Shown here piece after piece: positions 56,231-64,000 of a stretch of DNA of 64,000 nt. The stretch spans positions 128,001 through 192,000 of the forward strand of contig JAUVNS010000003.1 of assembly GCA_030599585.1 (NCBI GenBank). Direction: 5' to 3'. The stretch comes from Promethearchaeota archaeon. Its GTDB lineage: Archaea > Asgardarchaeota > Lokiarchaeia > Sigyniarchaeales > SOKP01. Made by a program: the position numbers and the translations under genes. Under the pieces are notes generated by a model, which was given only the letters and a program-made list of their open reading frames with translations, ran no database searches and was not told where the DNA came from. How positions within the stretch are numbered: the first letter of the stretch is position 1; the number at the start of each line of letters is the position of its first letter.

Positions 56231-56391
56231 TTATTTATCTGATAAATTATAATTATTTTACCTAATTTTTTTTGTATCTCATCTCATTAATTATAAAAAT
56301 TCTAATTTTATTGTTTTATTGAAAAACATTTTTAAAGTTTAACATCAAAAGAATAATTGGTTTAATACTAGAATTATTAACTTGTAGACTC

Positions 56392-59301
56392 TTGACGATT
56401 CAGAATTTAGATGTAAAAAAGGTTGAAGATCTAATTTTAAGTGGTAGCTACGAAAAAGCAGCTGATGAGCTGTTTAAAGTAATTGAAAATTCTGCAATTT
56501 CTGACAAAGAACTAATCTATGACAGCTTAACGTTATTAAATAAAATATGTGACAAATCTCCAACAATTTCCTTAAGAACAGTTAGAAATTTAAACAACAC
56601 CATAAACGACATGAATTCTTGGGTTAGGTTAGTGTCATTAGAAATACTTTACCAAATAACTATGTATCGACCGAATCTACTGATTGATCTAATCGATAAG
56701 ATTCGATCCCGGTTATTTGACCAAGAATCATCAATTCGACGCTTAGCTGTAAAAATTATGGGAAATTTAATTCTTTCGTTACATATCGATAGGGAGCAAC
56801 TACAAACAATAATTGAGGAATTTCTCGAAAAATTGATGGATACGGATTGGAAAGTGAAGCTTCAAGTATTTAAAACGCTGAAAAAAATTCTGAACCAAGA
56901 TTATACAAAGATTCGAGAATTCGAACCTTTACTATCTATTGTTATAGTAAATTTGAGAGACGAAGATGATGATGTTGCCAGATCAGCGGCAGAGTTGTTA
57001 AAAATACTTGGTACTTATTTTCTCTCAAAAGAAAAAATTACTTTTGTCCTACTTAACCTACTCTATAACGAAAAACCAAGAGTAAAAGAGTTAATCATAT
57101 GGCTTTTCGGAGAAATAGGAAAAGAAAAATCGTCCGAAATCATCCCTATTATTCCTAAGCTTATAAATTTATTAAAAGAGAATAATTATCGAATTCAATT
57201 AAGAGTAATTGATTCACTAGTAACAATAGCGGAGAATAATTTTGATCAAATTTGGGCTAATTTAATAACCGCACTCTATACCGGAGATTCTGAGTTTAGA
57301 AATGTGGTTATAAACGCATTATATCATCTATGTCAAAACAATATCACGGAAATTTTTAGTTATATATTTGAGGAATTTGAAAATCCATCAGAAAACGTTC
57401 GGGATGGCGTTTCGCTGGTTTTTAAACGTTTATACGAAGAATTTTTAGTCGAAATAGAAAACGAGATTACAAAAATACTTTATACTTTAGAATCAAAATA
57501 CTGGCGAGAGAGAAAAAAAACAATAATCCTATTACAAAATATCTGCAATATTTTGCAAAGTAAGAAAATAGCAGTCTGGCTTTTTATCGAGCTGGAGAAA
57601 AATTTAAAAACTGAAACTGATCCGGATGTAAATGAAGAGATTCTTTACACGATTAAAAACATTAAAACGACATTTCACGATATGGACGAAACAATTCAAG
57701 AAGTTAATGAAGATTTAGATATGTTTCGTAAAAAAATTAGTGAATTTCAGAAGATTCCCGCTCAATTCCGGGAAAAGATGAGTTCTTACATAAAAGAATT
57801 CAAATTTCAGCAAACAGAATTAGAATTAGATAAAATCTATCGTAAAATATTAAATAAAATTAAGAAGTTTAATAAAAGATTAAACAAGTTCGAGTACAAA
57901 AGGCTAGCGTTCAATTTAATTGAAGACTGGGAAGAAACTAAAGTAACCATCATTGACGAACTAAGCATTATTAAAGGATTCATTTCCGAGGTCTTTGTAG
58001 AAAAGAAGAAGGAATTTACATTAGATTTAAAATCGAAGATTAAGCTTTTAGAAGATCGTATCAATATATTAAAAGCCCAGTATGAATATGCTAGAAATTC
58101 TAAATTTTTGGAAACACTCGATGAACAAAGCTTAGAGAATATTGGAAATTCGGATGTCGAAGAAAAATTTACTGAAATCACGCAGTTTCGAAATTATATG
58201 TTTAAATTGGATGACGACATTCGGGAAATTCTCGTACATAACGTTGAATTTAACGAAATTTTTAAGTCTTTGCTAAGCAAATGGGTCGGATTGAAAATTG
58301 AACTACAAGAATTTTTAAGCGAGCTAGATCGAAAAATAAAAAGCTTGAAAGATAGAATCTTAATAGAAATTCAAAAATCTGATGGAAATCACGAAGAACA
58401 AAAATTAAATCTCATTTCATCTGTATTATTTCAAGGTCACATTCAATCAATAATTTCGCAAGGTATTGAAGGATTAAAGAAGTTCAATACTAATTTTGAT
58501 GGTTTAAAAACTAAGTTGGATACTTTATTAAAAAAAAGTGAGTTTTCTGACGCAAAAAAACTTATAGAAATGAACACGAACCAAATTCAAAATTTTATTG
58601 TAGAATACGAGAATCAGATTGATAATATAATAGGGAAACTCACTGAAGATAATGATATTTTTAACCTGTGGGCAAGGCCAACCGTAACTAAATTTGTTTC
58701 GTTTAAAGAAGTTCTTATAAACAAATTGAAAAACTTTAATCAGAAGAGTAATGACGAACTTACTCTGAGTCAAATAAAATATTATCTTGATGTGATGAAC
58801 CCTATCAAATTAGAAAGTCTCGCTTCTTATATTGATGCGGACATTGATGTGTTAAAGGAAAAGATTGTAAAATTTGTTAATAAGAATAAACTTAATGCTC
58901 GAATTATAAAAGATGACCTCTATTCACCAAAAATAGAAGATATTATCGAACCAAAAGATATTCTTTTGTTTAAGAATTTAAAAACAATTGGGAATAAGCT
59001 CTATTTTAACTTTAAATTAAATAATCCTACAAATTTACTTTTTTCGGATTTACAAATATCTCTTAAGACCCCTGATTATTTAACTTTTCTTCGAAGCGAA
59101 AGTTTTCCTAAATATCTTTATCTCAGCAAATTAAAGCCAGGAAATGTTTTTAAGTTTAATTATGTCTTAAAATTACAGCATGATATCAAAAAAAACATAG
59201 CAGATCCATCAGTTGACGAAGTAGATCTTAATATTTATTATAAAGATCCATTCGACATCACACGAAAAATTACAAAAAAAATGTCACTCCTTTTACCTTA
59301 A
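56392..59301 (+). CDS. HEAT-repeat protein with coiled coil, PCI-like winged helix and C-terminal beta-sandwich
   Basis: About 9 HEAT units (D...VR/VK), a helical middle, PIKLESLASY...LNARI, and a beta-rich C-terminus. Confidence 0.8.
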   Translation: MTIQNLDVKKVEDLILSGSYEKAADELFKVIENSAISDKELIYDSLTLLNKICDKSPTISLRTVRNLNNTINDMNSWVRLVSLEILYQITMYRPNLLIDLIDKIRSRLFDQESSIRRLAVKIMGNLILSLHIDREQLQTIIEEFLEKLMDTDWKVKLQVFKTLKKILNQDYTKIREFEPLLSIVIVNLRDEDDDVARSAAELLKILGTYFLSKEKITFVLLNLLYNEKPRVKELIIWLFGEIGKEKSSEIIPIIPKLINLLKENNYRIQLRVIDSLVTIAENNFDQIWANLITALYTGDSEFRNVVINALYHLCQNNITEIFSYIFEEFENPSENVRDGVSLVFKRLYEEFLVEIENEITKILYTLESKYWRERKKTIILLQNICNILQSKKIAVWLFIELEKNLKTETDPDVNEEILYTIKNIKTTFHDMDETIQEVNEDLDMFRKKISEFQKIPAQFREKMSSYIKEFKFQQTELELDKIYRKILNKIKKFNKRLNKFEYKRLAFNLIEDWEETKVTIIDELSIIKGFISEVFVEKKKEFTLDLKSKIKLLEDRINILKAQYEYARNSKFLETLDEQSLENIGNSDVEEKFTEITQFRNYMFKLDDDIREILVHNVEFNEIFKSLLSKWVGLKIELQEFLSELDRKIKSLKDRILIEIQKSDGNHEEQKLNLISSVLFQGHIQSIISQGIEGLKKFNTNFDGLKTKLDTLLKKSEFSDAKKLIEMNTNQIQNFIVEYENQIDNIIGKLTEDNDIFNLWARPTVTKFVSFKEVLINKLKNFNQKSNDELTLSQIKYYLDVMNPIKLESLASYIDADIDVLKEKIVKFVNKNKLNARIIKDDLYSPKIEDIIEPKDILLFKNLKTIGNKLYFNFKLNNPTNLLFSDLQISLKTPDYLTFLRSESFPKYLYLSKLKPGNVFKFNYVLKLQHDIKKNIADPSVDEVDLNIYYKDPFDITRKITKKMSLLLP

Positions 59302-59433
59302 TATTTTATACGATTTTTTGTCTGGACAGATAAAAAACCCACCTTACTTATCGAAAAAATTTATAAAAATTAGCGATTAAATTAATAACTAAAAAATTCA
59401 CAATAATAATAAGTAATAATAAGTAAAAAATTC

Positions 59434-59443
59434 GTGAGGTGAA
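59434..59443 (+). promoter_or_regulatory. Shine-Dalgarno site of selD1
   Basis: GTGAGGTGAA directly before ATG 59444; the same motif precedes selD2. Confidence 0.7.
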
Positions 59444-60481
59444 ATGTTACAAGAAGAAGAGAGTTATCGACTGACGCTCCAAACGAAATTATTCGGATGA
59501 AACTGTAAATTAGACTCCAAAAAGTTAAATGAACTTCTAAATAACGCTGGTTTAATTGGAGATATAGAGGATTCAGCAATAATACCTGTTCCAGGCACCG
59601 ACTTAGCAATGGTAAAAAATATTGATGTCTTTACCCCAATTATCGACGAGCCAGAAATAATGGGGGAAATCGCCGCAGCAAATGTAACCAATGATGTATT
59701 TGCGTTAAATGTTCCAGAAATCTCAGGTATGCTTGTATTTCTCGGGATCAAAAAAAATACGCCTATGTACATCGCAGAAGGGATATTAGTAGGAATTCGA
59801 AACTTTATCGAAAATAAAGTAGACTCAAAAGTACTTGGTGGTCATACAATCTACTCAGGATGGCCTCTTATTGGCGGAGAAGCTTCTGGATTTGTTAACA
59901 AAGACAAAATAATTAAAAAGAATTACGTAGAAGATGGGGATACATTAATACTAACCAAACCCGTAGGAAATCAAGCAATCATGGCAGCATATCGACTACA
60001 GAAAAACAACCCTGACCTTTTAAAGGCTTTTTCTAAAGAAGAAATTGATAAATCAATAGATTTAGCCGTAGAATATATGACTATGCCTCTCCAAAGCGTT
60101 GTTAAAGCTATCCACACTTATGAAGATGTATCTTTCGTACATTCAATGACAGATGTTTCTGGATTTGGACTCTCAGGACATTTAAAAGAGATGCTTCAAA
60201 ATTCAAAGCTATCAGCTGAAATCAAGAAGGTTCCTATATTTAAACTAACTAAGGAGTTAGCATACGAATTTGGATACAAATTTGACGAGTGTGAAATGCC
60301 TGAAACTGCGGGTGGAATGCTATTATCCGTGGATCATGAATATGCTGAAGAGTTTTCTGAACGACTCGACAACGAATTTCACGTGTCTAATTGGATTGTT
60401 GGATCAATCGATAACAAAGATGACCCTCGGCGTGTCCGCGTTTCAAAAAACGTTGAACATGTCGAAATAACTGAAATATAA
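59444..60481 (+). CDS. selD: Selenophosphate synthetase 1, selenoprotein (345 aa, Sec19 = TGA 59498-59500)
   Basis: In-frame extension of track ORF 59609: MLQEEESYRLTLQTKLFG-U-NCKLD...EDSA..., then IDVFTP, AANVTND, GGHT, LTKP, TDVSGFGLSGH and ETAGGML. Confidence 0.92.
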
Positions 60482-60553
60482 CGATGTTAATGAAATAAGC
60501 TAAAACACGCTAAGTGGCTGCTTATTGAAAATTTCCGTTGCAAGACGGCATCG
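60482..60553 (+). promoter_or_regulatory. Eukaryote-like SECIS element (3' UTR of selD1)
   Basis: AUGA (60490-93)...GA (60527-28) core, helix AUAAGC/GCUUAU, apical AAAA plus CAC/GUG mini-stem; conserved after selD2. Confidence 0.85.
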
Positions 60554-60937
60554 ATAATATCATCTGTTTTTATTTTAAAAATTATTAATTTTTCTTAAGT
60601 TTAGAATTGGATAAATTTCTATCCTTCCATTCTTTTAAGTACCATTTCAAAAAATTAGTTGAAACACCTATAGAATTTCTTTTATGATAAAAGAAATCTT
60701 CAATTTTTTTTTGTTTTACCCGGAAATTAAACATAAAATAAATTTACTTAAGGTATTCTTAGTTACTCCCAACAACTAATTTTAAATTAAAGATACTATA
60801 ACATGGGTGTAACATTTATCTTAAAATTGAATGTGTCTGTTTATCAAAAAAATTGATAAATAATATCGAAAATTTTAATAAATCGCAATTATTGATTGAA
60901 TTACCTTTAAAATAGAAAATGCTTATGGTAAAAAAAA

Positions 60938-62230
60938 ATGATTGGAGAAAAACCGGATTGGTATCCAATGTGGAGAGAGTTGGGAATAGATATTGAAAAG
61001 CATGACCAATTACTAGCAGTACTTCCTGATGCGTTTAAAACAATATATATTGACTCGCAAATAAATAGACCGAAAAATATGGCATTTTGGGATTTCGTAG
61101 TTGGAGATATTCACGGGTTGCGTGTAAGTGAATTGAAGAAAGCAAAAGAAGAAGGAAAGAAGGTAATCGGTACTTTTTGCCTTTATATACCTGATGAAAT
61201 AATCGTTGCTTTGGATGCAATCGGAATTGGATTATGTGGTGGTACGAATTTTTCAAATTTTGCATCAGAAAATCTTTTACCAACGAATATTTGTGCTTTA
61301 ATTAAATCAGCATTAGGTTTTGGTATTGGAAATGTCTGTCCGTATTTTGCAATAACCGATTTGTTAATTGGAGAAACTACATGTGATGGTAAGAAAAAAG
61401 CGTGGGAGATTTTAAATGACTATAAACCCGTATATATCGTGGAAACTCCACAGTGCAAAACAAGACCACAAGCGCGAGCGCATTTTATTGAGGAACTTAA
61501 AGCACTTATCATAAAACTTGAAGAAGTCACTGGAAATATACTTACTGCTGAAAAATTAAAAAAAGCTATGGAAAAAATTTCTAAAAAGAGAAAACAATTA
61601 AAGCGAGTCTATAATACTCGAAAATTTGATCCTGTTCCAATTTCAGGAAAAGATGGATTATTGGTTTCGCAAATAGCTTTTTATGATGACCCCGATAGAC
61701 AAATTGAAATGATTGGAAAGTTAGCTGATGAGTTAGAACAACGAGTTAAAAATGGGGAAGGAATTACTGATAAAGATACAAAAAGAATTTTATTAAGTGG
61801 GACACCTATGGCAATTCCTAATTGGAAAATCCATCACTTAGTTGAGACCAAGGGAGCCGTAATTGTTGCTGAAGAAACATGTACAGGGACAAGATATTTT
61901 CAATCAGAATTTGAAGAAAAATTGGGAGAAACCATCGCTGATCTTATTGAGCAATTAGCCGATCGATATTTAGGAATCAATTGTGCCTGTTTTACTCCAA
62001 ATATCGGACGAAAAGAAGATATTTTAAGACTTGCAAAAGAATACAAAGCAGATGGGATAATTCTTTATACATTAAATTTCTGCCAACCATACGATATTGA
62101 GGCAGTTATATTAGAAAAAGAGTTAAAAAAAGCTGGATTTCCTGTTCTTTCAATTAATACTGATTATTCTTCAGATGACGAAGGACCGCTTAACACAAGA
62201 ATTGAAGCATTCCTTGAAATGCTAAAATAA
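60938..62230 (+). CDS. Double-cubane-cluster reductase / 2-hydroxyacyl-CoA dehydratase (HgdB/YjiM) family protein
   Basis: GTFCLY, GLCGG, NICALIKS, CPYF, ETTCDGKKK, EETCTG, CAC, FCQPY and TRIEAFLEML. Confidence 0.87.
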   Translation: MIGEKPDWYPMWRELGIDIEKHDQLLAVLPDAFKTIYIDSQINRPKNMAFWDFVVGDIHGLRVSELKKAKEEGKKVIGTFCLYIPDEIIVALDAIGIGLCGGTNFSNFASENLLPTNICALIKSALGFGIGNVCPYFAITDLLIGETTCDGKKKAWEILNDYKPVYIVETPQCKTRPQARAHFIEELKALIIKLEEVTGNILTAEKLKKAMEKISKKRKQLKRVYNTRKFDPVPISGKDGLLVSQIAFYDDPDRQIEMIGKLADELEQRVKNGEGITDKDTKRILLSGTPMAIPNWKIHHLVETKGAVIVAEETCTGTRYFQSEFEEKLGETIADLIEQLADRYLGINCACFTPNIGRKEDILRLAKEYKADGIILYTLNFCQPYDIEAVILEKELKKAGFPVLSINTDYSSDDEGPLNTRIEAFLEMLK

Positions 62231-62348
62231 ATAGATTTTTCATAGCTAATTCAAACTATTAGAATTATAATGTAATTATTATATTTGATGTATATACTAA
62301 AAATTAAATTTTTCCAAGATTTTAATAGATATTAATAAAGCATTTAAA

Positions 62349-62359
62349 GTGAGGTGAAA
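62349..62359 (+). promoter_or_regulatory. Shine-Dalgarno site of selD2
   Basis: GTGAGGTGAAA directly before ATG 62360. Confidence 0.7.
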
Positions 62360-63388
62360 ATGAAAAAAATACCAGAATATCGATTGACAAAGCAAGTTAA
62401 AATCTATGGATGATCGTGCAAACTTGGTGCAAATCAATTAGACGAATTACTAGAGAAAACTGGCTTAAAGGGATTTATTGAAGATGCTGCTATTGTGCCT
62501 GTTCCAAATTCCGACATGGTTCAAGTGAAAAGTATAGATATCTTTACTCCGCTTGTAGATGAACCAGAAATAATGGGCGAAATCTCTGCATGTAACGTTA
62601 CAAATGATATATTTGCGATGAATGTTCCAGAAGTTTCAGGAATGCTTGTATTTTTAGCGATCAATAAAAACACTCCAATGAAAATCGCAGAAGGAATTCT
62701 TAGGGGAATTAGCAGGTTTATGGAACAAAAAATAAATTCCAAAGTGGTGGGAGGTCATACGATTTATAGCGAGTGGCCTCTTATTGGTGGAGAAGCGTCT
62801 GGTTTTGTGGATAAAAACAAATTAATCCGGAAACACGGTGTGAAAAAAGGCGATAAATTACTCTTAACAAAACCTATTGGATTACAACCAATTATGGCAG
62901 CGTATAGGATACAGAAAGATTTTCCGGATATGCTGGAGGAATTTTCATCGAATGAGCTCAATAAATCGATTGAGTTAGCTATAAATCTTATGACAACATC
63001 TAATCAAGGCGTAGTAAAGACGATTTATACGTATGATGATTTCTCTTTTATTCATGCTATGACCGATGTTACCGGTTTCGGATTATCTGGCCATTTAAAG
63101 GAAATGCTTCAAAATTCTGGATTATCTGCAGTTATTGAGACTGTTCCTTCAATTAAGTTCTCAAAAAAACTCTCTGAGGAATATGGATACAGTTTTAACG
63201 ATTGTTCCTGCTCCGAAACAGCCGGAGGTATGCTACTAGCTATCGATCCGAGCAAAGTAGAAGACTTTTCTAACGCGCTCTCCAGTAATGACATTTCTAA
63301 TTGGATTGTTGGTACTATTGATACCAAAGAAGATGAACTTGTAAGGATATCGAAAGAAGTTAAACAGATTGAAATAACTAAAATATAA
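62360..63388 (+). CDS. selD: Selenophosphate synthetase 2, selenoprotein (342 aa, Sec18 = TGA 62411-62413)
   Basis: In-frame extension of track ORF 62495: MKKIPEYRLTKQVKIYG-U-SCKLG...EDAA..., then IDIFTP, CNVTND, GGHT, TDVTGFGLSGH and ETAGGML. Confidence 0.92.
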
Positions 63389-63458
63389 TGATGTCAATGA
63401 AATAAGCTAAAACACATATGTGGGTGCTTATCGAGAATACCGTTGCTCCACGGCATCA
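63389..63458 (+). promoter_or_regulatory. Eukaryote-like SECIS element (3' UTR of selD2)
   Basis: AUGA (63397-400)...GA (63433-34), AUAAGC/GCUUAU, AAAA, CAC/GUG; same architecture as 60482-60553. Confidence 0.85.
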
Positions 63459-63656
63459 ATTTTTTACCAAATTATCTTTTTCTCTCTTTTTACTCGTAAT
63501 AGGAAAAAAACCTTCCCAAATTAATTTTTTAAAAAGAAATGTGTGAATACACCTTTAGATTTAAAATTATAAGTGGAAATATTCGATATTAACTCGAACT
63601 TAAGTTTATATTTCCTCATTTTCTTCTTACTACAAAAGGAAAGAAAAATATCTAAA

Positions 63657-64000
63657 ATGGCAAAGAATAAGGATTACTATAAAATTCTCGAAATAGAAGA
63701 AGATGCTTCTGAAGAAGAAATTAAACTAGCTTATCGGAGATTAGCGAAAAAATTTCATCCTGACCTTAATAAAACCGATTCCCATGCCAAAGAGAAATTT
63801 ATAGAACTACATGAAGCTTATGACACGTTAGTAAATCCTATAAGAAGAAAAATCTACGATCAAGCAGGGTATAATCCAAGAAATATAGATCTAAGTGATT
63901 TGTTTTGGCGAAACAATTTTAGGGGATTTAAGGATATATTAAGGCAAATCTACGCGTCTAACAGTAGAATACCCAAAGTAAAACCTCCACCTGAAGGAAT
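63657..64000 (+). CDS. J-domain (DnaJ-domain) protein; runs off the window end
   Basis: Manual translation [38 protein letters not shown]...[18 protein letters not shown], with the HPD motif. Confidence 0.9.

Follow-up and report, generated by a model that had tools for sequence, protein, structure and literature searches.

The two genes for selenophosphate synthetase (selD) in the analyzed window, a 64,000-nucleotide (nt) stretch of a Promethearchaeota archaeon (assembly GCA_030599585.1, contig JAUVNS010000003.1, positions 128,001 to 192,000), are each followed by a selenocysteine (Sec) insertion sequence (SECIS) element of a known Asgard type. The elements carry a conserved third arm and a short stub beneath the kink-turn (k-turn); both features go beyond the published model and hold for Asgard SECIS elements in general. 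We consider it almost certain that the element is a SECIS and highly probable that the third arm is an integral and general part of it. As a whole, the element would best be explained as a SECIS whose third arm offers the recoding machinery a second place to dock, a reading in which we have moderate confidence.

The first selD gene (paralogue A, window positions 59444 to 60481; the selD genes, the gene between them, and both elements lie on the forward strand) encodes 345 amino acids with Pfam matches to AIRS and AIRS_C. The product of the second gene (paralogue B, 62354 to 63388; 344 amino acids) is about 61% identical to it. Each gene contains a single in-frame UGA near the N-terminus, assigned to Sec (59498 to 59500 and 62411 to 62413), and ends with a TAA stop codon (60479 to 60481 and 63386 to 63388). 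The elements span 60482 to 60553 (copy 1) and 63389 to 63458 (copy 2) and begin directly after the stop codons; both sequences and their positions agreed exactly with an earlier note made from the DNA letters. The distance from the UGA to the AUGA of the core was 990 nt for copy 1 and 984 nt for copy 2, close to the 990 nt given there. In copy 1, which was matched by a covariance model that included it in the training set (E value of 7e-16), the 5′ strand of the basal helix P1 (60482 to 60486, from the first base past the stop codon) pairs with 60549 to 60553. It is followed by a stub of 2 base pairs (bp) that corresponds to positions −2 and −1 of the k-turn C helix (UU at 60487 to 60488 with AA at 60529 to 60530) and by the k-turn core at 60489 to 60494, composed of the 3-nt bulge AAU and the G-A pairs formed with the GA at 60527 to 60528. 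The segment from 60495 to 60525 comprises a 6-bp upper helix, the unpaired UAAAA (60501 to 60505), and a 3-bp mini-stem (60506 to 60508 with 60514 to 60516). The third arm, a side hairpin termed P3 (60535 to 60548, with a loop G at 60540), adjoins the 3′ strand of P1 without a linker. Copy 2 is built in the same way, with P1 at 63389 to 63393 and 63454 to 63458, the stub formed by UC (63394 to 63395) and GA (63435 to 63436), the bulge at 63396 to 63398, the GA dinucleotides at 63399 to 63400 and 63433 to 63434, the upper helix at 63402 to 63407 and 63426 to 63431, and the third arm at 63440 to 63453. The stub thus consists of two U-A pairs in copy 1 and of a U-A and a C-G pair in copy 2. An AUGA/GA core, a short helix, apical As, and a mini-stem were present in both copies, in line with the earlier description of a eukaryote-like, type II-like SECIS.

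Folds of the single copies were no better than those of shuffled sequences (z scores of −1.87 and −0.57), and an Rfam search of positions 59300 to 64000 with E values up to 10 yielded neither a SECIS nor another relevant family; the case therefore rests on comparison. We collected 113 distinct selD 3′ ends of the same group, of which 106 had the type II form and were parsed into fixed segments. The sampled SelD relatives shared 60 to 94% identity and came mostly from records labelled Promethearchaeota or Promethearchaeia, the Loki group of Asgard archaea. A MAFFT alignment of 52 homologues served as an independent check. Since kin share changes, switches of pair type were counted on the SelD protein tree, and partners slid out of register were used as controls. 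In the MAFFT alignment, two-sided changes were found at all 20 pairs, upper helix and mini-stem included, and 96.9% of the paired cells were complementary, compared to 84.9% in shuffled and 26 to 41% in slid alignments. Among the 106 parsed homologues, the inner four pairs of P1 were formed in 102 to 106, the upper helix pairs likewise in 102 to 106, and the P3 pairs in 101 to 105, with AUGA conserved in 93 and GA in 101. The second, third, and fourth P3 pairs alternated between C-G and U-A (85/19), G-C and A-U (54/44), and U-A and C-G (50/48), respectively. On the tree they switched Watson-Crick type 6, 9, and 9 times, compared to 0 to 2 times for slid controls; the covariation across genomes that had been proposed as a check was thus found. 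Covariation of the outermost P1 pair, noted earlier from the two copies, was substantiated by 14 switches on the tree; however, this pair proved to be the least reliable one of P1 (84 of 106 paired). RNAalifold recovered P1, the upper helix, the mini-stem, and P3 unaided, and did not recover the 2-bp stub. The exact CCGU/ACGG motif of the hairpin occurred about 50 times in the genome (4.85 Mb) and hence is no marker.

The three bases between P1 and the AUGA (UUA and UCA) had been drawn as unpaired, which needs correction: the first two of them pair with the two bases that follow the 3′ GA. The −1 pair (U-A in copy 1, C-G in copy 2) is thus a second compensatory pair besides the outermost one noted earlier. 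The −1 pair was formed in all 106 homologues (79 C-G, 23 U-A, and 4 U-G) and switched 8 times on the tree, and the −2 pair was formed in 101, with 5 coupled changes and 4 switches. In 85 cores outside family f1, the −1 pair was formed in 77 and took all four Watson-Crick types; this variation also explains the "GAC" described for type I elements. A rival pairing, in which the −2 base is matched to the last G of P3 to give a 6-bp P1, was formed in 97 of 106 homologues with 1 coupled change and 3 switches; the stub is favored over it only modestly. Nearest-neighbor energies count against the stub (−10.9 kcal/mol when closed compared to −15.5 kcal/mol when open, in a model that does not include k-turns), so that covariation is what carries it. 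Judged from the alignments, the base of the SECIS is a standard k-turn seated on a 2-bp stub, which opens into a three-way junction. The junction comprises P1, the stub below the k-turn, a linker that is mostly 3 nt long (97 of 106), and P3, with no linker between P3 and P1. The proposal that the CCGU/ACGG hairpin creates a three-way junction was supported; the hairpin covaries, and the junction is missing from the published text models. It needs the amendment that the junction opens on the 2-bp helix and not directly on the GA core.

The covariance model of the element matched only these two sites in its own genome. When 150 Asgard genomes were scanned, as the earlier note had suggested, all 29 matches were located directly 3′ of a selD match, part of them being training sequences; the model had no match outside family f1. 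In the genome studied here, a SECIS core was detected at 4 of 4 mvhD genes containing a UGA and at 0 of 7 that were UGA free. A total of 11 type I cores were found behind hdrA-mvhD, vhuU, prxL, and other UGA-containing frames, and downstream of each lay a hairpin that had G-C or G-U within or next to the loop; 7 of these hairpins passed a cutoff of −2 kcal, where 0.6 were expected. We extended the comparison to distant cores, both within the class but in other families and in five families outside it; they were parsed from selected loci, where some automatic misparses lower the counts. The third arm was present at 20 of 23 mvhD cores (4.5 expected) and at 42 of 51 selD cores (12.2 expected), as well as at all 32 cores that follow genes of two uncatalogued UGA families (3.1 expected). 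The third arm is therefore found on nearly all sampled Asgard SECIS elements, including those of other Asgard classes, and it is not selD specific, which settles the earlier question of whether the side hairpin also occurs on other selenoprotein mRNAs.

Much of this architecture is known. The selD (SPS) lokiSECIS of Mariotti et al. 2016 (PMC4989117, Fig. 5) is described as a distinct form with a shorter main stem and an extra apical stem; the short upper helix, which measures 6 bp plus one variable pair, and the apical mini-stem, both pointed out in the earlier note, are thus already published. The text of Huang, Xiao and Zhang 2024 (PMC11227280) models the Asgard type II element, which it calls eSECIS-like, as a core, an upper stem, and an apical part. 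It notes that selD and frhA have lower-stem pairs particular to their families, sees no strongly conserved bases in the surroundings of the core, and counts 51 genomes in which selD is present at least twice; a 2026 review restates this model. Our element agrees with the SPS lokiSECIS, or Asgard type II eSECIS-like element, in the AUGA/GA around a short main stem, the unpaired As, the mini-stem, and the position just 3′ of a Sec-containing selD. It differs in the side hairpin, the three-way junction, and the −1/−2 stub, none of which is given in the published texts, figures and supplements being outside this comparison. A literature search of texts, exclusive of figures and of the 2016 supplements, likewise retrieved no paper describing a three-way Asgard SECIS. 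There is a minor but real chance that the third arm is already drawn in the published figures or in the 2016 supplements.

The Asgard element shares with eukaryotic type II SECIS elements its 3′ untranslated region (UTR) position, an AUGA/GA k-turn core, the unpaired As, and the mini-stem. Eukaryotic type II elements have an upper helix of about 11 to 13 bp above a single lower helix. The Asgard upper helix, in contrast, has 6 bp and one variable pair, and a three-way junction lies below it instead of one helix. With the standard k-turn (Huang and Lilley 2016, PMC5061560) the core has in common the 3-nt bulge, the G-A and A-G pairs, and Watson-Crick pairing at −1b/−1n, while its C helix extends for only about 2 bp before the three-way junction. 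In a k-junction, a k-turn core is likewise combined with a third helix on the side of the nonbulged strand; there, A1n is followed only by a connector before the third helix, which lies opposite the loop (Wang et al. 2014, PMC4005666; Li et al. 2023, PMC10573300). We rejected identity with the k-junction, because the two bases after A1n covary with −1b and −2b (8 and 4 switches) and the third helix begins only afterwards. The methanogen (euryarchaeal) SECIS, in which a GAA/A bulge separates two stems containing consecutive S-S pairs, was excluded by inspection, as no lone A lies opposite; the GAA seen in copy 1 consists of the GA of the k-turn and one paired base, and its counterpart in copy 2 is GAG. 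Bacterial SECIS elements are located in the coding sequence, 16 to 37 nt past the UGA, whereas the Asgard element lies about 1 kb downstream in the 3′ UTR. Its third arm resembles the bacterial apical loop (PMC13188914) in being a small hairpin with a G within the first two loop positions, a resemblance only. It is not placed beside the UGA and has G-C instead of G-G or G-U, and the EFSec-like protein of this genome (480 amino acids, with the archaeal domain III) had no match to the SelB winged-helix Pfam domain.

We next considered how the three-armed element could act. In eukaryotes, SBP2 binds one conserved feature of the SECIS and eEFSec the other; the selenosome structure (Hilal et al. 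2022) is covered here by way of PMC11881835. The L7Ae motif of SBP2, which is related to L30, binds the k-turn, and L7Ae folds k-turns that ions alone leave unfolded. SBP2 has not been reported in Asgard archaea and is not known in any archaea, where there must be a linking factor. A PF01248 profile search of this one genome returned only two L7Ae-family frames, both of 134 amino acids. Each 3′ UTR SECIS would allow the ribosome to decode as Sec the UGA located about 990 nt upstream in selD. As shown by covariation, P1 runs on into the 2-bp stub and P3 is inserted in the 3′ strand; the k-turn would kink off the short upper hairpin with its unpaired As. By analogy to the L7Ae domain of SBP2, an L7Ae-family protein (L7Ae or L30e) may fold and bind the k-turn, and the apical As may contact EFSec. 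P3 would then present the invariant G of its Y-G-Y loop, placed 11 to 12 nt from the k-turn, for an additional specific contact, with EFSec, another Asgard factor, or the ribosome as the candidate partner.

The loop of P3 points in this direction. Only six columns of the plain alignment of 52 homologues were invariant, namely, the P3 loop G, G11, A12, and A47 of the k-turn, and two apical As. The loop G was preceded by a pyrimidine in 103 of 105 loops, was located 11 to 12 nt past the 3′ GA in 104 of 105, and was followed by C (85) or U (20), the profile being anchored on G-Y. The stem of P3 is free in sequence and may even be reversed (CCC/GGG compared to GGA/UCC), while the loop G-Y is retained. 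The earlier note had raised the third arm as a possible factor-binding site, and we retain this possibility, with the loop as the somewhat favored recognition site. Several observations weigh against the docking reading. None of the 108 tests of the P3 loop against the rest of the element uncovered a co-changing position (best P value of 0.004, not significant), and a 3-nt loop motif cannot identify a binding partner. Methanogen SelB does not bind its own SECIS. No tRNA-Sec scored above the cutoff in a search of the assembly; the tRNA-Sec gene of Loki has an intron. In addition, the genomes are related, and shuffle-based expectations overstate significance.

Alternatively, the third arm could be a scaffold only, with P3 stacking on P1, propping the stub, and aiding refolding after the terminating ribosome has melted the 5′ side, and with the loop kept for stability or an internal contact. 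P1 begins 0 nt past the stop codon in 92 of 105 selD UTRs and, in family f12, is itself part of the coding sequence, so that ribosomes should unfold the 5′ side; the zero linker between P3 and P1 fits this reading as well, as do the many GNRA-like P3 loops (GCAA or GCGA). However, the loop G never varies and is always followed by C or U, where GNRA permits any base; only 63 of 106 loops fit GNRA, and its defining last A was present in only 62 of 105. The arm also persists where the upstream P1 strand is hard to discern, and the internal covariation that would accompany an internal contact did not appear in the 108 tests. We regard the scaffold as unlikely, although it is the strongest of the rivals. 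Much less probable is a 3′-end feature of the transcript, acting in protection from the exosome or as a piece of a terminator, which would accompany the SECIS without a role in recoding. U-rich runs follow both copies and many homologues, yet P1 encloses the arm together with the SECIS core at a fixed distance to the k-turn, a scan for bacterial-type terminators did not flag the arm, and a protective hairpin requires no invariant loop G. A selD-specific regulatory module, e.g., for feedback on selenophosphate supply, as the earlier note had also proposed, is largely refuted: selD genes of the family are indeed alone in having the type II top, the CCGU/ACGG form of the arm, and a GAUG/CAUC helix, and the selD model matches nothing else, but the same arm and loop motif follow the cores of mvhD, vhuU, prxL, and other UGA genes, and eight selD genes combine a type I top with the same arm.

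In a bolder and rather doubtful reading, the third arm would be an RNA substitute for those portions of SBP2 that are absent from Asgard archaea. It would anchor the SECIS to the ribosome or EFSec while plain L7Ae or L30e binds the k-turn, and its loss in the lineage leading to eukaryotes would have accompanied the takeover by SBP2 and the extension of the upper helix.

The two selD paralogues form separate clades across two genera, so their duplication is old, as judged from the protein tree; the spacer between them varies among relatives. Paralogue A carries an arm of the CCGU or CUGU type and most paralogue B genes one of the CCAC type. The A-type arm also occurs in the B clade that holds copy 2 and in a few scattered B genes (window positions 63440 to 63453; L055, L062, L063, L030, and L058). 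The shared stems most likely result from repeated exchange between the tandem paralogues, and the stem identity in the window alone is then no evidence of selection. The earlier note had cited the identical stems as support; they belong to two paralogues and do not represent independent evidence. In eight selD genes (L020, L051, L069, L072, L074, L080, L082, and L094), a type I top replaces the type II top and the side hairpin is retained. The whole SECIS was thus replaced on several occasions. Loki-type selD genes with 67 to 75% identity were also found in records labelled Nanopelagicaceae, Hodarchaeota, Hermodarchaeota, Thorarchaeota, and Odinarchaeota (L099; L046, L047, L055, L061, and L068); these five record labels or bins are probably wrong. 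In family f12 (L141 to L177), P1 lies within the last selD codons, and the gene uses as its stop codon the UGA contained in the RUGA core; by its GUGA core, this family seems to resemble the Thorarchaeia description. Families f13 and f24 (L150 and L155 to L161) contain selD matches with an additional internal TAA besides the Sec UGA, possibly reflecting small introns or frameshifts.

Two frames of this genome that are followed by three-armed elements are candidate selenoproteins. The first (locus L194, position 535 onward, SECIS at 1002; homologues L228 to L247) contains a tandem UGA-UGA within HAD-U-U-ADN or VGC-U-U-EKV, is conserved on both flanks, and is followed in 20 of 20 homologues by a three-armed type I SECIS about 130 to 143 nt downstream. 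It had no Pfam match, is not among the seven families in the text of Huang 2024 (PMC11227280), and may encode a Sec-Sec selenoprotein. The second (L193, positions 587 to 790; homologues L248 to L259), a small membrane-like frame with GGG-U-P-x-x-C, kept the UGA in 20 of 20 matches and had a three-armed SECIS at all 12 loci examined; it is a candidate for an uncatalogued selenoprotein. Two more three-armed type I SECIS elements of the same genome lie behind short UGA frames (L190 at 1258 and L191 at 1255). Around the selD genes, the window encodes a HEAT-repeat and coiled-coil protein of about 1,000 amino acids directly upstream of paralogue A (56272 to 59301), a protein of the 2-hydroxyacyl-CoA dehydratase D-component family (PF06050; 60938 to 62230) that lies between the two copies and is not part of the SECIS, and a DnaJ-like frame with an HPD motif that runs past the window end (63573 to 64000).

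The Asgard SECIS is the proposed bridge to the eukaryotic system, and the results bear on how archaea tie a 3′ UTR SECIS to the ribosome without SBP2. The Loki vhuU SECIS (SLoki) is the only one reported to have been tested and was inactive in a Methanococcus maripaludis reporter; its listed folding energy is −6.9 kcal/mol. For the vhuU SECIS of the genome studied here, we calculated −6.2 to −8.0 kcal/mol for the core only and −22.9 kcal/mol for the full element. The listed value is near that of the core, which is suggestive of a truncated SLoki construct that lacked the third arm; host incompatibility accounts for the inactivity equally well. If the third arm does stand in for parts of SBP2, the published lokiSECIS would be a truncated element, one possible reason for the inactivity in the reporter. 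The third arm makes searches for Asgard selenoproteins not yet listed more discriminating, and its invariant loop G offers a precise target for mutation. Should the functional unit be a three-armed RNA of about 70 to 80 nt and not a hairpin of roughly 40 nt, binding and reporter tests of Asgard SECIS elements would need the whole element.

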